A stretch of DNA of 64,000 nucleotides, from NCBI GenBank assembly GCA_963713865.1, contig OY970208.1, forward strand, positions 768,001 to 832,000, read 5' to 3'. A program made the translations under genes and the position numbers. Below, in pieces: positions 5,081-64,000 of the stretch. The stretch comes from an uncultured candidate division Zixibacteria bacterium (GTDB taxonomy: Bacteria; Zixibacteria; MSB-5A5; RBG-16-43-9). The notes under the pieces were generated by a model, which searched no databases, had not been told where the DNA came from, and saw only the letters and a list, made by a program, of their open reading frames with translations. Numbering within the stretch: the stretch's first letter is position 1; every line of letters starts with the position of its first letter.

Positions 5081-5195
5081 TGATAATATCTTTGCTTTTA
5101 TGCCGTATATTGTTAATATTATTTGGATTTTGTGAGATAGTAGCTTTTATCAGGAAATCAAGTTTATTAAACTATAAATAAATCTGGAGGATAAA

Positions 5196-6824
5196 ATGTG
5201 TAGTTATCGTATACCCCAGCCTCTCAACGAGCCGGTTTACAGTTATGCTCCGGGCTCACCTGAGCGGGATAAACTAAAAATTGCTTTAAATGAGCTGAAG
5301 TCAAAACAGATCGAAGTACCCTTGGTAATTGATGGCAAAGAGGTTCGAACTGAGAAGAAAGTCAAAATCACTGCACCGCATGACCACAGTTTGGTTTTGG
5401 GCTATGCTTATCACGGCAGTAGAAAAGAGTTCCAGATGGCAATTGATTCTGCACTCAAAGCCCAGAAGAGCTGGGCAGCGATGCCAGTGGAGCAAAGGGT
5501 GGCTATCTTTCTAAAAGCAGCTGATTTATTAGCTGGACCTTATCGTTATATTATGAACGCTGCTACCATGCTGGCACACTCCAAAAATCCTTTCCAGGCA
5601 GAAATCGATGCAGTGTGTGAGTTAGCTGACTTCTTCCGGTTCAATGCCTATTATATGCAGATGATCTCTGACATCCAGCCAATCAACCCGGATCCTCTGA
5701 TCTGGAACAGGATCGACTACAGACCCCTGGAAGGATTTATCTTTGCGGTCACCCCCTTCAATTTTGTGTCGATCAATGGTAACCTTCCCACGGCTCCGGC
5801 ATTATGGGGGAACGTTGCAGTTTGGAAGCCGGCCAGGAGCGTGCTTTACACGTCGCATTTTATTATGAAGATATTTTTGGAAGCAGGGTTGCCGGCCGGA
5901 GTAATCAACTTTGTAACGGGCAACTCCTCGGAGATCAGCGAAGTAGTCTTAAACCACGAGAATTTGGCTGGTATCCATTTCACCGGCTCAACCTCTGTGT
6001 TTCAGAATATGTGGAAAACCATCGGAGAGAATATCGCCAGATACAAAACCTATCCGCGTATTGTGGGCGAGACCGGAGGAAAGGATTTTATCTTCGTTCA
6101 TCAGTCTGCTAATCCTGCTCAGGTAGCTACAGCGATAACCCGAGGCTCTTTTGAATATCAGGGGCAGAAATGTTCAGCCGCTTCCAGGGCGTATATACCA
6201 AAATCGCTCTGGTCCCAGATCAAAGAGATTTTGCTAAAGCAGGTAAGCGAGATCAAAATGGGTGATCCCTGTGATTTCACCAATTTTATGAATGCCATAA
6301 TCGATAAGAGCGCTTATGACAGTATCAAATCGTATATCGATTATACTAAAAGCGCCTCCGATGCCAAAATCATTGCTGGTGGTAACTGCGATGATTCCAA
6401 AGGATATTTCATCGATGCTACGGTGATCGAGACCACCAACCCGAAGTTCAAGACGATGGAGGAGGAAATCTTCGGTCCGGTGATTACTATTTACGTGTAT
6501 GAAGATGCTGATTACGAAAAGACGCTCCATTTCTGCGACCAGACCTCACCTTATGCTTTAACCGGAGCTATCTTTGCTACTGACCGGAAGGCAGTAGAAA
6601 CTGCTCAGACTATTTTGCGCAATGCGGCCGGGAACTTCTATATCAACGACAAGCCAACTGGAGCGGTGGTTGGCCAGCAGCCGTTTGGCGGAGCCAGGGC
6701 TTCAGGCACGAATGATAAAGCCGGCGCTCTGCATAATATGATCCGCTGGACCTCACCCCGGGCCATAAAAGAGAACCTTTTACCCCCGACTGATTTCAAG
6801 TATCCTTTTATGAGACAATCGTAG
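5196..6824 (+). CDS. pruA: L-glutamate gamma-semialdehyde (P5C) dehydrogenase
   Basis: FTGST, GETGGKDF, FEYQGQKCSA, EEIFGP, QQPFGGARASGTNDKAG. Confidence 0.95.
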   Translation: MCSYRIPQPLNEPVYSYAPGSPERDKLKIALNELKSKQIEVPLVIDGKEVRTEKKVKITAPHDHSLVLGYAYHGSRKEFQMAIDSALKAQKSWAAMPVEQRVAIFLKAADLLAGPYRYIMNAATMLAHSKNPFQAEIDAVCELADFFRFNAYYMQMISDIQPINPDPLIWNRIDYRPLEGFIFAVTPFNFVSINGNLPTAPALWGNVAVWKPARSVLYTSHFIMKIFLEAGLPAGVINFVTGNSSEISEVVLNHENLAGIHFTGSTSVFQNMWKTIGENIARYKTYPRIVGETGGKDFIFVHQSANPAQVATAITRGSFEYQGQKCSAASRAYIPKSLWSQIKEILLKQVSEIKMGDPCDFTNFMNAIIDKSAYDSIKSYIDYTKSASDAKIIAGGNCDDSKGYFIDATVIETTNPKFKTMEEEIFGPVITIYVYEDADYEKTLHFCDQTSPYALTGAIFATDRKAVETAQTILRNAAGNFYINDKPTGAVVGQQPFGGARASGTNDKAGALHNMIRWTSPRAIKENLLPPTDFKYPFMRQS

Positions 6825-52660: not shown

Positions 52661-53350
52661 CTATGATTTCAGAGATTTCTTACCGAAAATAGATTTAAAA
52701 ATCCCAACAATTATACTCACCAGGCCAATCGGTAAGAGAAATATAAAGAAAAGTCTGGAAAGAACTGCGCTCCATAAAAACTTTGGAACAGAAAGAATCG
52801 CTTTCCATAACCTCTTGGTCCCTGAAATAACCAACGTATCAGGAAGAAACTCTTCCTCAATTATCGTTTTTTTCTCTTCTACTTCTGGCTCGACTTCAGT
52901 CCCGGCTATAATCCTTTTTGCTTCTGCTTCAATTGCTGTCTCAACTTCTGGTTCTTCCTTTTTCACTGTCCTGGAATGTTCTATAGCTTTGACTAAAACT
53001 TCTTTAAGCTCATCCGGTGTAAATGGCTTTGAGACATAATCTGAGACTCCTAACTTCATTGCTTTTACTGCTGATTCCACAGAAGGGTAACCCGTTATCA
53101 TTACTACGATTACATCTGGATGATTCTTCTTAATAATCCTTAAAACCTCCATCCCGTCAATTTCCGGAAGTTTCCAGTCTACTAAAACCGCATCATATTT
53201 ATCTTCCTCTATTTTCTTTAATCCTTCCCTGCCATTCATTGCTCCCTTTACCTCAAAACCTTCCTGACGTAATATCTTGCGGCAGCTATCTAAGACGATC
53301 GGTTCATCATCTATCACCAGTATGTTCTTTGTATCCTTCATCTTACTCAC
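52661..53350 (-). CDS. Response regulator with acidic linker and C-terminal hydrophobic segment
   Basis: LVIDDE, DWKLP, ITGY, KPF; hydrophobic tail. Confidence 0.85.
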   Translation of the reverse strand: MSKMKDTKNILVIDDEPIVLDSCRKILRQEGFEVKGAMNGREGLKKIEEDKYDAVLVDWKLPEIDGMEVLRIIKKNHPDVIVVMITGYPSVESAVKAMKLGVSDYVSKPFTPDELKEVLVKAIEHSRTVKKEEPEVETAIEAEAKRIIAGTEVEPEVEEKKTIIEEEFLPDTLVISGTKRLWKAILSVPKFLWSAVLSRLFFIFLLPIGLVSIIVGIFKSIFGKKSLKS

Positions 53351-53395
53351 CTCCTCTGATTTTCAGTTTGTTACTTTTTTCACAAACTTTTAAAG

Positions 53396-53412
53396 AGCAA
53401 TTGGTATGCCAA
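53396..53412 (-). promoter_or_regulatory. Sigma54 (-24/-12) promoter
   Basis: TTGGCATACCAATTGCT: GG-N10-GC, about 45 bp upstream of the operon. Confidence 0.75.
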
Positions 53413-54442
53413 AAGATTATATATATTATGCTGATCTAATTAACGTTTTGTATAATAATGAGTTATAATGAAAAATTTATGAGTGTATTACTATTAATGG
53501 AGCTTGATTAATATTAATTGTATATATTTTATATACGAGCTTGAAAGTTAAATATATGCAAGACTTAAACTTATACTTTATTTTAGATGTATAAATTTAA
53601 TCTAAAAGTATAATTCTTTTATCCAAAAATTTTTGAAAAACGGCTGATAAATATATTTATTGGTTACAGGAACTATTAATTGAACATTACTATTAAAAAT
53701 AGACGTTAACATATACCTTTAACAACCCGAAGAGTTACTGCTATATCATCCTTTTAATTAGATTATAGATTTACTATAGATATAGAATGATGATTGTAAA
53801 AACACTTGATACCACTCAACTTGGTACAAATAGATATAACCTGACGATTATTAGCAAAGCGGATTGTCAATCTAAAAGTCGATCACGAAAAAAACCTCCC
53901 CTCCTGAAATTTTAATTTATGGTTTAGATGGTTTCAGAACCTAAACTAAAAAAGACCAACTAAATATCCTGGAATAACTTTACATAAACTCCCCATTTAT
54001 TTGTCCTAATATGGATCCCTTAGGAAAAGAAATGGGATTTAAATCTAGGCATAGAAACCAAAATATCTTTGATATTTTAACTCTAAAAGTATGAAATTCA
54101 GTTTCAGATCTTTTATAATCACCTAATTTTTTAAGTCTTATAGATAGTTAAAAAAACTTTCTTTTTTCCCAAAAGGACCCTATATTGTATTAAAGAGCAG
54201 GTTAAATTATTCTCCCTTTAAAAGGTGAGGAGTGTATGCTTTGTTTTAAGATTTAAGCTCTTTGAGATATTTTCTTCATAGACGCTTTTTCAAGTCCAGA
54301 ACTCGAATATCAAAGAGAGGAAACTTTTAAAAGGTAAGGTCAGAGTTACAAATCTTAAGAGTTCTTTTTAAGACGTTCAGGGAATAGAGGTCCAGCTTTG
54401 GTGGGGTCAGACCTTGCAAAATATTTAACTCGAGGTTTAAAT

Positions 54443-55795
54443 ATGAATCTAAAAGAAAAAGATAAATCGGTAAGTATCCTGGTGGTGGATGATGAGTTCA
54501 GCGTGAGGGATTCTTTGACCAAGTGGTTCAAGTCAGATGGATATTTGGCAGATTCAGCTGCGGATGCAAATGAAGCTTTGAAAAAACTTCAGGAAAAGCA
54601 CTGGGATATTGCTTTTCTGGATATCAAGATGCCGGGAATCGATGGAATGGAACTGCAGCAGAGGATCAAAAACATCGATCCTAATATAGTTGTTATAATA
54701 TTAACCGGTTATGCCTCTATTGATACCGCGGTAAAATCTCTTAAAGAGGGAGCTTATGATTATGTGACCAAACCAGTTGATCCGGATTATCTTTCTCACC
54801 TGATCGAAAAAATTGTCCAGCAAAAACTGGTTTTATCCGAGAATATTCAGCTCAAGGAAACGATTCGAGAACTTTACATAGCGGATCAGATTATAGGCGA
54901 AAGTCCGGAGATGCTAAAGGTTTTTGAATTGATGAAGGCGGTAGCCCCTGCCAACACATCTGTTTTTATCCGGGGGGAGAGTGGAACTGGAAAAGAGCTT
55001 TTAGCCCGGACAATTCATGCCAAAAGCTCCAGGCGGTTTTTCCCTTTCGTCAACCTCAATTGCGGAGGGTTGAGTGAAGATTTTCTGGAGAGTGAGCTTT
55101 TTGGACATGAGAAAGGAGCTATGGCTGGAGCTTTGTACCAGCGCAAAGGAAAACTTGAGATGGCCGATGGCGGTACCATTTTTCTGAATGAGGTTGCCAG
55201 CCTTTCACCAAAAGCCCAGACGGTCCTTCATACCGCCATAGAGACAAAACAGTTCAATCGGATTGGTGGTCAGGAAATCATTAAAGCTGATTTCCGCTTG
55301 ATCTCAGCCACCAGTCACAATCTGGAGCTTCTGGTTAAAGAAGGCATCTTCAGGGAAGATTTATATTATCAGCTGAATGTCTTTACCATTTCCATGCCTC
55401 CCTTAAGAAACAGAAAGAAAGATCTGCCGCTTTTAGCCAGTTATTTTTTAAATAGTCTGGTAAAAGCTGTGAATAAACCAATAGAAGGGCTATCGGCTGA
55501 AGCTCTGAAATCAATAGAAGAATATGATTGGCCCGGAAATGTACGAGAGCTTAAAAATGCGATTGAAAGAGCGGTGGTGGTAAGCAAAGGTCCGTTAATA
55601 ACTTTATCGGACCTTCCCATACCGGCTTTTCCTAAAACCTCGATGGAGGATCTAAGCCTGGAAGCCGCAGAAAAAAATCACCTCCGGCAAGTGCTCGAGC
55701 AGATGGGATGGGACTTAGATAAATCAACTGAAGTTTTGAAGATCGATAGAGTAATACTTGAGAGTAAAATTGAAAAATACGGGTTACGGAAGTAA
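54443..55795 (+). CDS. NtrC-family response regulator / enhancer-binding protein with degenerate motifs
   Basis: REC + GESGTGKE + WPGNVREL; GAFTGA replaced by GAMAGA; Walker B reads FLNE. Confidence 0.9.
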   Translation: MNLKEKDKSVSILVVDDEFSVRDSLTKWFKSDGYLADSAADANEALKKLQEKHWDIAFLDIKMPGIDGMELQQRIKNIDPNIVVIILTGYASIDTAVKSLKEGAYDYVTKPVDPDYLSHLIEKIVQQKLVLSENIQLKETIRELYIADQIIGESPEMLKVFELMKAVAPANTSVFIRGESGTGKELLARTIHAKSSRRFFPFVNLNCGGLSEDFLESELFGHEKGAMAGALYQRKGKLEMADGGTIFLNEVASLSPKAQTVLHTAIETKQFNRIGGQEIIKADFRLISATSHNLELLVKEGIFREDLYYQLNVFTISMPPLRNRKKDLPLLASYFLNSLVKAVNKPIEGLSAEALKSIEEYDWPGNVRELKNAIERAVVVSKGPLITLSDLPIPAFPKTSMEDLSLEAAEKNHLRQVLEQMGWDLDKSTEVLKIDRVILESKIEKYGLRK

Positions 55796-59126: not shown

Positions 59127-60401
59127 ATGCCTAAGCGGATAGTTGTGGGGATGCAGTGGGGGGATGAGGGTAAAGGTAAGATCGTTGACCTTTTGTCTGA
59201 GCAGGCGGATGTCATTGCCCGATACCAGGGCGGGGCAAATGCCGGTCATACCGTGGTAATCGATTCCAAAAAATTTATTTTGCATCTTATCCCAACCGGA
59301 ATTTTACATCCTAAAAAATTCTGTGTGATCGGAAACGGGGTGGTATTGGATTTAGAGCTTTTCTTCCTGGAGTTGGAGGAATTAAAAAGTAAAGGGATAA
59401 AGTTTGACAAAAGGATTTTCATCAGCAAAAATGCTCATCTGGTAATGCCCTATCATAAAGATATGGAGAGGATAGAGGAGGAGAAAAGGGGAAATTCCAG
59501 AATCGACACTACTCTTAAGGGGATTGGACCGGCTTACCTGGATAAAATCGGTCGGAGAGGGATACGTTTAAATGACCTTTTCGACGAGAAGCTTTTCCGG
59601 GCAAAGATCGAGGAGAATCTGAAGGATAAAAGCAGCTGTCTCAACTGTCTTCTGGAAAAAGAGCTTTCCTCATTATGGGAGCATTGTTTGAGCTTTCTTG
59701 AGTACAAAAACAGGCTCGCCCTTTTGATGATAGACACAACCTCCTTTTTGAATAAAGCGATTAAACAAAAGAAAGATATCCTTTTCGAAGGAGCTCAGGG
59801 CACACTTTTGGATATAGATTTCGGGACCTATCCTTATGTGACTTCCTCAAATACCACAGCCGGAGGAGCCTGCACCGGATTGGGAGTCAGTCCGGTTTAC
59901 ATAGATGAGGTCATCGGCGTTTCCAAAGCTTATACCACCAGAGTGGGGAATGGACCTTTTCCCACTGAATTGAAAGACAAAACCGGGGAACATATCCAGC
60001 AAATTGGGAACGAGTTCGGCGCCACAACTGGCAGACCCAGAAGATGCGGATGGTTAGACCTTTTGATCTTGAGATATGCGGTGATGATAAACGGGATCAA
60101 AAAAATCGCATTGACCAAATTAGACGTCTTAGACCAGCTCGAGACCATAAAGGTTTGCACCGGGTATAAATACAAGGGTAAGGTTTTAAAAGAATTTTCC
60201 ACTGAGCTTAATGTTCTGGAAAATTGCGAGCCATTATATAAAAATATTTCTGGTTGGAAAAAAGACACCACCGGGATAAGGGATTACAAAAAACTCCCCC
60301 AGAAAACTAAAGACTATATAAAATTCATCCAAGACCAGACCGAAACGAAAATCTTCTTAATCTCAACCGGGTGTAAAAGGGAAGAGACGATCTGGGTATG
60401 A
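59127..60401 (+). CDS. purA: Adenylosuccinate synthetase
   Basis: QWGDEGKGK, GGANAGHT, EGAQG, TTGRPRRCGW. Confidence 0.97.
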   Translation: MPKRIVVGMQWGDEGKGKIVDLLSEQADVIARYQGGANAGHTVVIDSKKFILHLIPTGILHPKKFCVIGNGVVLDLELFFLELEELKSKGIKFDKRIFISKNAHLVMPYHKDMERIEEEKRGNSRIDTTLKGIGPAYLDKIGRRGIRLNDLFDEKLFRAKIEENLKDKSSCLNCLLEKELSSLWEHCLSFLEYKNRLALLMIDTTSFLNKAIKQKKDILFEGAQGTLLDIDFGTYPYVTSSNTTAGGACTGLGVSPVYIDEVIGVSKAYTTRVGNGPFPTELKDKTGEHIQQIGNEFGATTGRPRRCGWLDLLILRYAVMINGIKKIALTKLDVLDQLETIKVCTGYKYKGKVLKEFSTELNVLENCEPLYKNISGWKKDTTGIRDYKKLPQKTKDYIKFIQDQTETKIFLISTGCKREETIWV

Positions 60402-60415
60402 GGGGGTTTTGAAAT

Positions 60416-61474
60416 TTATTGCATAGATCTGAGTTCAAAGGCTTTTTCAAAATTCTTTGCTTTCAATATTTTCTTTTTTAGACCTTCATAGGGTGGGAAT
60501 GCTCCGCCAAAACCAATAACCCTTCTTGCTTTAGCTATCATTTCTAATTGCTCAGCAGTCCAATTAGGTGATACGAATGTGTTCTTAGGCCTTGGCTCAA
60601 GCGGTTCATATCTCATTGGATAAGCAACAACCCCCCAATCCAAAAGGTCTTTTATCCGATTCAAAAAATCTTCTGATTTATCAAGATGGTTATAAAGACA
60701 ATAAACGATAATTTTTCTACCTCTAATTCCTACAGTATTCAAAATAGTTATGGCTTTTTTAAGAGATGATCTAATAGGATTACTATCATATGCTAATCTT
60801 ACTAAGGGAATTTTAAGTCTTTTAAGTCTTATTGCAACTTCTTCATCCAAAAGTCTTGCATCCAGCCCTTGATTAAAATCAACTTCAAGATTTAATTCCT
60901 CAAGTTCATCAAAGATGTTTTTCCAATATGGAGAAGCAAGAATATTGTTATCCCAGAATACAACTTTATTATGTCCTGGATATATAAGCTTTTTTATTGT
61001 TTTTTTTGCCTTAAATTTAGGCTCCAATACAGGTACTGAGCAAAAAGGACAACTCCTTATGCATCCTCTGGATGAAAAAAGAATGCTTGCTTTCCACTCA
61101 GGTACCAGAGAATAATCGGGTAAGATGTTTTCGACTTTCTTGTATAAACCTTTATGGATTTTAATTCTGTTTTTAAAATTTTCCCGAAGATGATCTTCAC
61201 ATAAAGTAGCATAAATGCCACCTACTATAATATCTGATCTTTTGTATTTTTGGGTATAATGCTGGATAACTTCATGAACTGGTTCCCAGGCATAAGTAAA
61301 AAGACTAGTAATATAGATAATATCTGGCTTAAATCCGTTGTCAGAAAACCCTTGGACAAATGTTACTTTATCCTTTTTCTGCTTGTGATAAGCAGCGAGT
61401 TTAAGAAGACCGAGGGGAGGATAAGGAGTATGATACTTCTTACTCTTTGGAGGTTCGACGAGCAAAATTTTCAT
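60416..61474 (-). CDS. Radical SAM protein with N-terminal B12-binding-like domain
   Basis: KILLVEP...PPLGLLKLAAY...IVGGIYATL; RGCIRSCPFC (CxxxCxxC); DNNIL, DFNQGLDAR. Confidence 0.88.
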   Translation of the reverse strand: MKILLVEPPKSKKYHTPYPPLGLLKLAAYHKQKKDKVTFVQGFSDNGFKPDIIYITSLFTYAWEPVHEVIQHYTQKYKRSDIIVGGIYATLCEDHLRENFKNRIKIHKGLYKKVENILPDYSLVPEWKASILFSSRGCIRSCPFCSVPVLEPKFKAKKTIKKLIYPGHNKVVFWDNNILASPYWKNIFDELEELNLEVDFNQGLDARLLDEEVAIRLKRLKIPLVRLAYDSNPIRSSLKKAITILNTVGIRGRKIIVYCLYNHLDKSEDFLNRIKDLLDWGVVAYPMRYEPLEPRPKNTFVSPNWTAEQLEMIAKARRVIGFGGAFPPYEGLKKKILKAKNFEKAFELRSMQ

Positions 61475-62982
61475 GTTAACAGAATCATAGGATATTCAAA
61501 TCTTATTCCATCACATTTCACGGAATTTATGAAATCCCTGCATTCGGCTTTTAACTTTCCCAGACGAGGGTAACTTTTAGCTATACTTTCATTTACAGTA
61601 GCTAATATCTTTCCGTTGTATTGAAAACCTTGAAGCAGCTCAGGTGTTTCCAAACAAAGAGATTTCTCACGTTTGTCTTCTTGCAGACTATCAAGGTATA
61701 TTAATAAGACTGCAAAAGGGAAGCGACTCAAACTTAGCTTCTTCAAATGCTTTTTTGAAAGTCTTTCTCGGAATTGTTTGTCATGAAGCGCGATTGAAAG
61801 CCCTGCGGGATAAATGTGGTAGACTAAAAACATCCTTTTCTCTGGCTTCTCCTCTTGACGTGCTTCAGAGAAAATATCGACTAGGAATCGAAAACAGCTA
61901 GCGACACCATGGGAATCATGAAAACTTTCCCGAAAAATTTGCTCTAATGATTCGTCTTGTGTTCCGAACACATCAGGAGGCCAATCAATTTTGTGTTTTT
62001 TTTCGGAGACCGAAAATTTAAACAGAGATATTAGTTGCTTTAAGTTCTCTTTATATACAGGGTCATCCCAGACATTTGTAATTTCTCGTTCGCTGGAAAT
62101 CGTACTAACTCCGTAGAACTCTCTTTTTAGGTCGTCGAGTTTTGCAATAAGATAACCAACATCATGAAAAACCGAGGTTAGTAGCCACATAAATTCAAGG
62201 GAAAGTCCTCGATATTTTGGGAAAATACTCTTGAAGTAAGTTTTAAAATCACTTTGATAGCGATCCAGTATGAATAAACCTAACAAGAAAATATGAAAAG
62301 AGTGAAAGTAGTGATCCCTGATATCCAAGGAGCTTTCAAACCTACTTAGGATTTCGAACGAATCGATTCCGGACGTATAGTTGTCATCAGACTTTAAGAG
62401 CTTGGCAATAGTGTCTTTAACGAGCTCTTCCTCTCTCTGCTGATCGAGTTTACTCTTGCTTTTAAGTTTCAGATATTCTTTTGAAAAGTCTTTCAACAAT
62501 GTTCTAAATTTTGAATTTCCTAAGGTAAATGTTGGGATTTTATTTATTACCCATGATGGGTAGTGTCCGACATACTGCGCGGGTGACACAAGTGGAATCA
62601 CTGGGTTTACAGCATCACGAATTAATAAGAGGCGATTTTTTTTGACCAAGATCAGACCGAATCCCTTTTCCCGACAGCTTTCCTCGAAAATGTCCAGAAG
62701 CTGTTCGTCTTGCAAGATGAAAAAGAAATCAAAATCGCAGCCGCCCATCGCCTTTTTCACTTCTTCAGCTAAGATAATTGGGAAAGATTCTGCTGAAGGC
62801 ACTTCCGTAAATGCAATGTACCTCCTAGTCCGAGTGTCTTTAAATAAATAATCTGGTTGCCACCGAACATCGGGTAATTTTCTTGAAAACCGCACTTTAT
62901 CTCTCGGTTGCATAGCACTTGAAGGGAGTTTCCGTGCTTTTGAAATATACTTCCCCAGCTTATGAACAAGATCTGTTGACAT
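61471..62982 (-). CDS. HD-domain protein with N-terminal restriction-endonuclease-like region
   Basis: RDHYFHS, FHDVGY, SHG, ALHD, LDSLQE; N-terminal WQPDYLF...FTEV. Confidence 0.75.
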   Translation of the reverse strand: MSTDLVHKLGKYISKARKLPSSAMQPRDKVRFSRKLPDVRWQPDYLFKDTRTRRYIAFTEVPSAESFPIILAEEVKKAMGGCDFDFFFILQDEQLLDIFEESCREKGFGLILVKKNRLLLIRDAVNPVIPLVSPAQYVGHYPSWVINKIPTFTLGNSKFRTLLKDFSKEYLKLKSKSKLDQQREEELVKDTIAKLLKSDDNYTSGIDSFEILSRFESSLDIRDHYFHSFHIFLLGLFILDRYQSDFKTYFKSIFPKYRGLSLEFMWLLTSVFHDVGYLIAKLDDLKREFYGVSTISSEREITNVWDDPVYKENLKQLISLFKFSVSEKKHKIDWPPDVFGTQDESLEQIFRESFHDSHGVASCFRFLVDIFSEARQEEKPEKRMFLVYHIYPAGLSIALHDKQFRERLSKKHLKKLSLSRFPFAVLLIYLDSLQEDKREKSLCLETPELLQGFQYNGKILATVNESIAKSYPRLGKLKAECRDFINSVKCDGIRFEYPMILLT

Positions 62983-64000
62983 TATTTTAGTCTCTGCGAT
63001 ATGATTTTTGCTGTTTTCACTAATGCTTTAAGCGCTTCTGCCAAATCCCTCTTTTGTTTGATTTTCAAGGCTCCTATAGTCGTCTCGGTGTAATCATTTA
63101 ATGCCCTTAATAGACTAGCAATAGTATTAATCAATTTTCGAGGGGAAAATACCGGTTTTTGCATTTCTTCTGGGAAAAGAGATATATACTGTTCTCGTGC
63201 TTCCGAAAAAGTAAACGATCTATCTTTGACAAATTCTAAAAGAAGGTTTTTTGCCTTCGCAGCTTGATTCCTGTCTCTTCTTCTCTTTGTTAAGATACCG
63301 GCATCCCTTATTTGTTCAGCGCGGTCCACAAAACCAGCCGTAACTTTTTCGAACAATGCTTTTCTAATGTCATCAGGAGAGAATTTATCTTTTAACTCAG
63401 GGAAATTGCGGAAGGCAGGCTCTACTATTTTTTCTTCTATCTCAACTGCATAGCTGTAATAGCTTCTGTTCAGTTTATCATAGATCTGGTTTCTCAGGTA
63501 TTGCGGCCATCTAAGAAATCTCACCCTACTCTCGGCGGTCTCTTGGTCCATACCAGTCCTTACAGTTAGTTGTTTTATAAGCTCTTTTTCAACGTCAGTA
63601 TCTGGCGTACATGCGACTCTAATCTGCTCCTTTATTGAGGCAACTATTTTTTCTAAAGCCCTTGCTTGTTCTAGTGTGTCCCATCCTTCTTGGTTCATGT
63701 GTATTTGAAACATTGTAGTAAGAATATCAATGTGTCCACCCGGAGGTAAAACATATGCCGGTATTTTATCTCGATTGGTAGCAATTGCTGCTTTCCATCT
63801 CCGTTCGCCATCTATGAGCTGATATTTTATTTTACCTTCTTCTGTGGGGAGCTTTTTTATGATTATTGGTACTATTACGCCATATTTCGCAACTGATTCC
63901 TTCAATCGTAGGAAGTGTTTGTCCTTAGAGAAATCCTCATTCCGTGGATTCTCGTGACTTGGCTTAATATGTACTGGCGACGGCCACTCAAGTTTGCCGA
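62982..64000 (-). CDS. ParB/Sulfiredoxin N-terminal domain protein (start lies beyond the window edge)
   Basis: VPIII...YQLIDGERRWKA; frame stays open to position 64000 (…IKPSHENPR…LKESV). Confidence 0.85.
   Translation of the reverse strand, partial: GKLEWPSPVHIKPSHENPRNEDFSKDKHFLRLKESVAKYGVIVPIIIKKLPTEEGKIKYQLIDGERRWKAAIATNRDKIPAYVLPPGGHIDILTTMFQIHMNQEGWDTLEQARALEKIVASIKEQIRVACTPDTDVEKELIKQLTVRTGMDQETAESRVRFLRWPQYLRNQIYDKLNRSYYSYAVEIEEKIVEPAFRNFPELKDKFSPDDIRKALFEKVTAGFVDRAEQIRDAGILTKRRRDRNQAAKAKNLLLEFVKDRSFTFSEAREQYISLFPEEMQKPVFSPRKLINTIASLLRALNDYTETTIGALKIKQKRDLAEALKALVKTAKIISQRLK

Follow-up and report, generated by a model that had tools for sequence, protein, structure and literature searches.

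A ParB, nuclease-fold/HD and radical SAM gene trio downstream of purA in a Zixibacteria genome, a candidate restriction-modification-like cassette

At the right-hand end of a 64,000-nucleotide (nt) stretch of DNA from an uncultured Zixibacteria bacterium (GenBank assembly GCA_963713865.1, contig OY970208.1, positions 768,001 to 832,000; the whole stretch is called the window here), three minus-strand genes that adjoin purA encode a ParB/Srx-type protein, a protein with a nuclease-like fold and an HD domain (the middle protein), and a radical S-adenosylmethionine (SAM) enzyme. We found that the three genes are kept together at distant loci, and we tentatively read the trio, from its sequence and setting, as a small, horizontally acquired, restriction-modification-like defense cassette in which the radical SAM enzyme would mark DNA. 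The link to a DNA mark is the best supported of the readings that we weighed, and the assignment to the restriction-modification class rests on context, namely the hotspot site, the substitution of a methylase for the radical SAM gene in one relative, and the swapping of partner genes.

Conservation, partner replacement and site of the trio

The first-pass annotation, made from the letters of the window alone, had taken the three genes for one operon whose products act together. In a genome scan with the middle protein (one genome per species) the trio proved to be conserved, with the order ParB-HD-radical SAM retained in 6/6 of the loci found. The named records among these loci came from Zixibacteria, Omnitrophota (two) and Planctomycetota (two), that is, from at least three phyla, and the metagenome locus L054 likewise holds the trio. 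Amino acid identities of the three proteins fall together, from 63/60/73% down to 28/26/33% (ParB/HD/radical SAM), and starts and stops in the trio loci overlap or nearly touch. A conserved coupled unit of ParB, HD and radical SAM genes is supported by these comparisons. At the locus L007 the open reading frame (ORF) caller gave no radical SAM ORF at the midpoint of the tblastn match; the trio was still seen there by tblastn and in the ORF list.

The distribution of the trio is patchy. A profile of the middle protein matched 5/285 genomes of the phylum, one of the five being a weak match in an unrelated GAF protein, and it matched 0/2 other genomes of the genus and 0/8 of the family; in a second phylum the only match was the centre genome itself (1/401). 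The flanks differ by locus and are housekeeping genes, such as enolase, DivIC and RecO in one case and QRPTase and BirA in another. The trio thereby has the appearance of a rare, patchy, accessory cassette that moves horizontally. Searching PADLOC-DB 2.0.0 with the trio returned only a weak match of the ParB region to MTase_II (E 0.0021), and the combination, which the first-pass annotation had not recognized as a named system, has no name in PADLOC 2.0.0 or Pfam. Neither the trio nor the radical SAM family was found described in the open full-text literature; subscription papers and supplementary tables lay outside that search, among them those with the modularity preprint's 500 candidate systems and the survey tables for the Menshen system (see below), which might list something similar.

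Our main argument that the radical SAM enzyme marks DNA was a replacement of the third gene. In the genome G078, a ParB gene (31% identity, E 9e-51) overlaps the gene of an HD protein that belongs to the middle-protein family (25%), and 5 nt after the HD gene lies a D12-class N6-adenine DNA methyltransferase (Pfam 2.5e-18) in place of the radical SAM gene. Within the family of G078, the radical SAM gene was found in 0/108 genomes at E<=1e-20. All ParB-HD pairs seen (9/9) directly precede a modification-type gene, which is the radical SAM gene in 8 cases and the Dam-type methylase in 1. Because a Dam-type methylase replaces the radical SAM gene behind ParB-HD, the radical SAM enzyme would act in the part of a methylase.

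The site of the trio was compared with that in three relatives, in which synteny breaks off precisely at the purA stop; two of the relatives become syntenic again at a gene of 877 amino acids (aa). After purA, G208 holds type I hsdMSR and MNT/HEPN genes, G211 two N6_N4 methylases and an AlwI endonuclease, and G206 a PLD nuclease, MNT/HEPN genes and a duplicated purA 3' fragment. The trio had been thought possibly anti-phage, and its context is that of a defense hotspot: relatives keep restriction systems or a PLD nuclease in the same slot. The variable region after purA was seen in the loci L108, L109 and L110 of this bacterial family. The duplicated piece in G206 (L110, G206:C8 ~5166-5237) is a second copy of the last 24 purA codons, with one TAG, ~1.1 kb past the gene end, and resembles the mark left by an element's integration into the 3' end of purA. 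MNT/HEPN pairs occupy the post-purA slot in G206 and G208, and also flank the trio in L003.

Turning to the window itself, the layout given by the first-pass annotation (three minus-strand genes joined by TAATG and ATGA overlaps, with 14 bp to the purA stop) is borne out by the sequence. The ATGA overlap of the middle and radical SAM genes lies at 61471-61474, and the TAATG overlap of the ParB and middle genes at 62980-62984. The stop codon of purA is TGA at 60399-60401, and that of the radical SAM gene, which reads TTA on the plus strand, occupies 60416-60418; the genes are listed in Table 1. That the operon might continue beyond the window did not hold: only the ParB gene completes there (ORF at L002 2983-4026, start 25 nt past the window end), followed by a 246-bp spacer and a separate HepT/MNT pair, and the operon consists of three genes only. 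Beyond this spacer come HepT (113 aa; Pfam 5.6e-32), MNT (96 aa; Pfam 6.5e-16) and then the 877-aa gene that is syntenic in relatives.

Table 1. Genes of the cassette and the spacer that separates it from purA (positions within the window).
Feature	Position	Strand	Remarks
Radical SAM gene	60416..61474	minus	352 aa; terminal gene of many cassettes
Middle gene (nuclease fold + HD)	61471..62982	minus	503 aa
ParB/Srx-type gene	62982..64000, runs past window end	minus	full ORF 347 aa
Spacer	60402..60415	.	14 nt between convergent purA and radical SAM stops

The 14-nt spacer is the left edge of the inserted island. GC content is 0.34-0.40 in intervals over 60.0-64.0 kb vs. 0.42-0.46 in intervals over 58.0-60.5 kb. 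No convincing direct repeats were found at the flanks of the island, and a scan of the locus for promoters and terminators gave counts that were not above those in shuffled sequence. A look-up of sequencing runs listed no RNA run and just three DNA runs, with 5-6% of the query words. The HepT/MNT toxin-antitoxin pair with its spacer (L002 4193-4901, ~64192-64900 in window numbering) is on the same strand as the trio, and the spacer carries a perfect palindrome with a 14-bp stem (L002 4193-4223) that could be a terminator of HepT/MNT or an operator. Elsewhere in the window, GC content dips to 0.29-0.31 at 53000-54500, with surroundings at ~0.40-0.45.

Domains and invariant residues of the three proteins

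The radical SAM enzyme has a Rossmann domain of the B12-binding-like kind at its N-terminus and, after it, a core with the CxxxCxxC motif. Both features had been noted in the first pass, and both stand: the cysteines C138, C142 and C145 are invariant in 15/15 radical SAM proteins, and the Rossmann domain is matched in the structural model. Pfam scores were below cut-off for B12-binding (5.6e-5, 23.4 bits; cut-off 32.1) and for Radical_SAM (1.6e-3, 19.1 bits; cut-off 29.5), PF02310 is precomputed on many of the 120 listed radical SAM homologues, and a sequence search of the PDB with the radical SAM profile gave no match. The AlphaFold2 (AF2) model (pLDDT 89.9) was matched by Foldseek to MiaB, MgmA and AprD4 at probability 1.00 (E ~1e-9). 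Alignment of the model with VIA-align ranked AprD4 first (Z 24.8; 332 aligned residues), ahead of MgmA (21.9), MiaB (20.3), TsrM (18.8) and OxsB (17.3); RimO, CysS and TokK were further matches, with MiaB and RimO at Z 19-20. The protein thus has the CxxxCxxC motif and the partial TIM-barrel core by which the radical SAM superfamily is recognized. Residues 1-113 match cobalamin-binding domains at Z 9-10 in VIA-align; AprD4 has such a Rossmann domain, yet does not bind cobalamin, and its substrate is an aminoglycoside (PMC12931638). With a median pI of 9.3 (n = 77), proteins of the radical SAM family are strongly basic, which lends weak support to our reading of the trio.

The middle protein matches no Pfam family and no PADLOC 2.0.0 model. 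Its close relatives form only 23 clusters among 5.8 billion, the nearest Atlas clusters are unnamed, and the wider family found by profile comprises 1272 representatives at E<=1e-3, of which 148 remain at E<=1e-30. Searches with the protein gave no match in plasmids, one weak match of only 76 residues in phage records and none in viral contigs. Foldseek of the AF2 model (pLDDT 81) against the PDB returned nothing at E<=0.001, and VIA-align divided the model into two domains, ~1-127 and ~140-503. The second domain resembles HD-type domains of PPX/GppA, cyclic-nucleotide phosphodiesterases, HD-GYP and SAMHD1 (Z 6-10.6). The first pass had read a full HD ligand set in this gene, and this was confirmed: H224, H227, H273-D274, H358, H389, H400-D401 and D431 are invariant in 14 relatives, and again among 10 relatives of which some are only 20-27% identical. 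Pfam HD did not match at E<=0.1; the protein has the H...HD...D pattern on an all-helical core that marks the HD superfamily, with a fold match that is moderate for a helical protein. Because all metal ligands are invariant, the HD domain is probably active.

The N-terminal domain tells a different story in its active-site residues. Residues 1-127 match restriction-endonuclease folds in VIA-align (PaqCI, Z 9.3; Cdn1, 7.5; NucS-type endonuclease, 7.3), so the nuclease-like N-terminus seen in the first pass stands as a fold, but its catalytic residues are not conserved: the "PD..E" residues that had been pointed out vary, with D44, E60 and K77 differing among relatives. Because W41 and P43 are the only invariant residues there, the N-terminal domain is probably not a working nuclease. 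A PD-(D/E)xK restriction endonuclease was considered and rejected, for the fold is similar but the conserved D...(D/E)xK triad is missing. In relatives of the middle protein, the HD module was also seen behind CDC48_N (5.7e-26; P0142) or a weak ubiquitin-like match (P0127), and it appears to behave as a swappable effector domain. A complex prediction of the middle protein with ParB scored 0.00, which counts neither way.

The ParB-type protein has an N-terminal ParB domain with a GERR box, continues with a part that resembles Noc/Spo0J and ends in a long helical tail. Pfam ParB_N (PF02195) matches at 5.7e-12 (46 bits; cut-off 26.3), and the protein aligns with Noc (7ol9) over residues 20-185 and also with Spo0J and ParB structures; its N-terminal domain is predicted to be of the type that binds nucleoside triphosphates (NTPs). 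The GERR motif of the first-pass annotation was confirmed: D72-G73-E74-R75-R76 is invariant in 8/8 trio-type ParB proteins, as are the NPR and F-x-I-H boxes, and the protein thus combines the domain and the box that characterize the ParB/Srx superfamily. We also considered a ParB of a partition (parABS) system and rejected it. The score against the partition model TIGR00180 is 39.4, below its cut-off of 58.45, and parA was not seen within the 18 kb of L002 when the ORF list was read by eye. The absence of parA that had been reported for the window therefore extends past its end, and the ordinary parA-parB pair of the genome lies elsewhere (G000:C1 ~655.6-657.2 kb, ~175 kb from the trio), with a 259-aa protein that carries a KGGVGKT Walker motif (identified by eye) and a 290-aa ParB (ParB_N E 2.3e-31).

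A second, unlinked ParB paralogue of 331 aa is present in the same genome (L130 3193-5026; G000:C1 ~1899192-1901025). It is 32% identical to the trio ParB over the N-terminal domain and shares the F-x-I-H box. One base after it begins the gene of a 278-aa protein that has W-x-P-D at its start; the Atlas clusters nearest to this protein, which are leads only (scores 0.84-0.87), have Mrr_cat and TIR, DUF4062 or deoxyribosyltransferase domains. This locus may be a sister cassette with another effector and without a radical SAM gene. Because hhalign of the 278-aa protein against the middle-protein family was not significant (probability 1.7%), we do not claim that the N-terminal domains of the two are homologous.

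The radical SAM gene outside the trio

Homologues of the radical SAM protein number 5359, and the best 120 of these are 69-86% identical to it; the protein is much better conserved than its ParB and HD partners. In metagenome loci seeded with the radical SAM gene, ParB-HD stands beside it in only 2/80, one of which has the coordinates of L003. For the clustering of neighbors we used 81 distinct loci, after removal of three duplicates and with L007 and L071 dropped for want of a called radical SAM ORF; the sampled contigs may stem from related organisms, so that the counts are not independent. A type IIG restriction-methylase occurs within 3 genes in 21/81 loci (PADLOC PDLC03630, E=0, full length), often with a 557-aa protein; a viral-contig protein that matches the cluster of this 557-aa protein by BLASTP has a HerA domain. 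The most frequent direct upstream neighbor is a membrane module of ~200 aa (14/69 loci), often fused to a HAD/NT5C-like domain. Less often, the neighbors are GHKL ATPases, DndB/DpdB-like ParB-superfamily proteins, DUF3800 proteins, or an ADP-ribosylglycohydrolase together with a PIN protein.

The membrane-module family, for which no family name was found, has an invariant R..Y-A..N..R...D..L-P motif and comes with or without the C-terminal HAD/NT5C-like domain (DIDGVL). Members beside the radical SAM gene were located at L024 4529-5941, L041 4598-5986, L011 195-1286 and L005 10623-11231, among others, and one member lies just downstream of an Omnitrophota trio.

In a slot between enolase and DivIC/RecO, we compared three loci. 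The first (L003) holds ParB-HD-radical SAM, the second (L014) a GHKL gene (521 aa), a 294-aa gene and the radical SAM gene, and the third (L015) a GHKL gene (611 aa) followed directly by the radical SAM gene. The three radical SAM proteins are sisters in a quick IQ-TREE maximum-likelihood tree (SH-aLRT 99), in which the trio label changes at least 5 times; the 294-299-aa partner in the GHKL cassette matches no Pfam family. This pattern suggests that partner modules have been swapped in front of a resident radical SAM gene.

Relatives of the enzyme were also found beside ParB-type genes. In G212 a ParB_N gene lies directly upstream of a radical SAM relative, and a DndB-like gene adjoins another relative. 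The G212 locus (L116, G212:C73 2374-6405) is from the window's own family: the ParB_N protein has 479 aa, its gene overlaps that of the radical SAM relative (37% identical), and the next genes on that strand encode a MiaB-like methylthiotransferase and an RDD membrane protein. When viral contigs were searched with the window's radical SAM protein alone no match was obtained, and the family alignment retrieved 10 relatives (21-51% identical). Among the neighbors of these viral relatives are a helicase-N6_N4 methylase fusion, whose gene shares 4 nt with the radical SAM gene, and a ParB_N-methylase fusion with a PDDEXK protein. On the evidence of these neighborhoods, the radical SAM enzyme does not belong to the trio alone and appears as a widespread module with many other partners.

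Readings of the trio and comparison with known systems

If the trio is a restriction-modification-like cassette, the radical SAM enzyme would place a covalent mark on the cell's own DNA, as a methyltransferase does in ordinary restriction systems. The ParB-type protein would bind an NTP through its GERR pocket and, as a sensor or clamp, load onto DNA. The effector would be the middle protein, with the degenerate restriction-endonuclease-fold domain docking on DNA and the dimetal HD domain cleaving phosphodiester bonds in unmarked incoming DNA. Folds, invariant residues, gene order, patchiness, hotspot site and partner replacements are what we observed; DNA as the substrate, the kind of mark, nuclease activity of the HD domain and contacts between the proteins are what we infer.

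Several points weigh against such a scheme. A methylase stands in for the radical SAM gene in one case only (n = 1), and the neighbor counts lack independence, as said above. The nuclease fold at the N-terminus of the middle protein is without a conserved catalytic triad, and the HD fold matches are moderate (Z ~10) and lead to small-nucleotide phosphodiesterases and PPX/GppA rather than Cas3. AprD4, the structure that the radical SAM enzyme matches best, is a sugar 1,2-diol dehydratase with a small-molecule substrate, and the HAD/NT5C-like nucleotidase neighbor, like HD, suits nucleotide chemistry over DNA chemistry. Lastly, type IIG enzymes bring their own methylase, and a second mark is not obviously needed beside them.

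A wider proposal, possible but rather doubtful, is a portable DNA-marking module common to anaerobes and phages, in which a cobalamin-type radical SAM enzyme would install a new radical-made base modification. The same "M" module would then serve at least five modules: ParB with nuclease-fold/HD, two GHKL types, a NurA/HerA-type IIG and a DndB-like one. Should the radical SAM enzyme mark DNA, it would make a new kind of epigenetic self-mark and represent a new class of DNA-modification enzymes, one that spans phages and thousands of uncultured anaerobes. The trio would then be the first restriction-like system with a radical-SAM-made self-mark that is read by a nucleotide-gated ParB clamp coupled to an HD nuclease, and with the ParB-HD pair a GERR-type ParB would join the known defense sensors. 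Standard defense screens are aerobic and use E. coli or Bacillus, where oxygen-sensitive cobalamin-type enzymes fail, and such screens would overlook a cassette of this kind. The radical SAM family offers a small (352 aa), widespread and highly conserved target for biochemistry.

The alternative that fares best, though we consider it unlikely, is a modified-nucleotide pathway like that of viperin, Ophion or oxetanocin, in which a free (deoxy)nucleotide would be turned into an antiviral or signaling analogue, the HD domain (elsewhere the HAD/NT5C-like domain) would trim phosphates, and ParB would bind or hydrolyze NTP as a sensor or regulator. In line with this pathway, two unrelated kinds of phosphohydrolase directly precede the radical SAM gene (HD in the trio, HAD/NT5C-like in 14/69 loci); the HD fold matches to nucleotide phosphodiesterases also agree with it, and so do the closest folds of the radical SAM enzyme (AprD4, a radical sugar 1,2-diol dehydratase, Z 24.8; also OxsB, Z 17.3). 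There is also a precedent in Ophion, a validated three-gene anti-phage system that joins a radical SAM protein (OpnA) to a PHP phosphoesterase (OpnB) and a phosphoribosyltransferase (PRTase; OpnC) (bioRxiv 10.1101/2025.09.30.679545). The genes around the enzyme point the other way: a Dam-type DNA methylase replaces it in G078, DNA methylases, ParB and DndB-like proteins recur as its neighbors, also in viral contigs, and no nucleotide kinase was found among the neighbors scanned. The restriction-endonuclease-like domain fused to HD, moreover, has no obvious small-molecule role. If the enzyme does make a modified nucleotide, it would define a new antiviral-nucleotide pathway beside viperin and Ophion.

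A scheme of the abortive-infection type, with ParB sensing foreign DNA and the middle protein as a toxic effector, acting by nucleotide depletion or by indiscriminate breakdown of nucleic acids, strikes us as quite unlikely. Here the radical SAM enzyme would be a second effector or regulator, for example on RNA or protein, and there would be no self-marking. The G078 methylase substitution and the methylase-rich neighborhoods suggest discrimination by a DNA mark instead, and effectors are typically far less conserved than the radical SAM enzyme, whose best 120 matches show 69-86% identity. What speaks for the scheme is the finding of the HD module with other N-termini (e.g., CDC48_N in P0142), the RNA and protein modifiers MiaB and RimO among the fold matches (Z 19-20), and the second ParB paralogue with its 278-aa neighbor, for which the Atlas clusters with Mrr_cat and TIR-type domains are leads only. 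Menshen (PMC12065111) offers a parallel as well, with a ParB-superfamily sensor and an effector that combines an inactive nuclease fold with a variable toxin.

We regard it as improbable that the genes are mere neighbors, that is, that the radical SAM gene is an independent single-gene element landing in hotspots and ParB-HD a separate two-gene system. The many unrelated partners of the radical SAM gene, the occurrence of ParB-HD in just 2/80 metagenome loci and the changes of the trio label on the radical SAM tree (at least 5) would all be expected of such elements. Coupling is indicated by the 4-nt start/stop overlap with the upstream gene here and in several other cassettes, by retention of the trio down to 26-33% identity in three phyla, and by the third, modification-type gene directly behind 9/9 ParB-HD pairs. 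An ordinary chromosome or plasmid partition ParB with unrelated neighbors, to which the ParB_N Pfam match and GERR motif might have pointed, is so improbable as to be set aside, given the lack of an adjacent parA, the canonical parA-parB pair elsewhere in the genome, the TIGR00180 score under cut-off, and the lack of the gene in other genomes of the same genus.

Among known systems, restriction-modification (types I, IIS and IIG) is the closest in several respects. The trio is a small, mobile, patchy cassette in a slot where relatives hold type I and AlwI systems; a putative phosphodiesterase effector is paired with a modification-type enzyme, for which a Dam-type methylase substitutes in one relative; and the trio's radical SAM family is also coupled to type IIG enzymes. 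Unlike these systems, the trio is without a SAM methyltransferase fold and without a recognizable active PD-(D/E)xK, HNH or PLD nuclease, its presumed marker is a radical SAM protein with a B12-binding-like domain, and it includes a ParB-type NTP-binding protein.

In the oxetanocin pathway, the HD phosphohydrolase OxsA and the cobalamin-dependent radical SAM enzyme OxsB act on deoxyadenosine phosphates. As in that pair, the gene of an HD protein adjoins that of a Rossmann and radical SAM enzyme, and the OxsB fold is matched at Z 17.3 over 327 residues. OxsB, however, has ~730 residues vs. 352 in the trio enzyme and showed no sequence-level similarity to it in the PDB search; the trio also includes a ParB, lies in a defense hotspot and has its HD domain joined to a restriction-endonuclease fold. 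AprD4 (PDB 6fd2) has the same two-domain layout as the trio enzyme (Z 24.8; root-mean-square deviation 3.1; 332 residues), but at just 15% identity it is no guide to the substrate. Ophion likewise joins a radical SAM enzyme to a metal phosphoesterase; its partners are PHP and PRTase proteins, as against HD and ParB in the trio, and it was found in Gammaproteobacteria.

The sensors of Menshen, GmrSD, SspE, DndB and DpdB offer a second likeness, in that a ParB-superfamily NTP-binding DNA sensor goes with a nuclease-fold/catalytic effector. In Menshen (NsnABC) a ParB-superfamily sensor is combined with an effector that has a degenerate nuclease-fold N-domain and a catalytic C-domain (PMC12065111). 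The trio differs from it in that its ParB is of the ParB_N/GERR (Noc/Spo0J-like) kind and not DUF262 with DGxQR, that there is no ABC ATPase, that the effector is a restriction-endonuclease fold with HD and not inPIN with BECR, and that a radical SAM gene is present. Membership in the Dnd or Dpd systems was considered and rejected, the ParB having no PADLOC match to DndB/DpdB and the 18 kb of L002, read by eye, holding no DndACDE or DpdA/C-K. Taken together, the trio would resemble restriction-modification in its working and Menshen in its sensor-effector layout.

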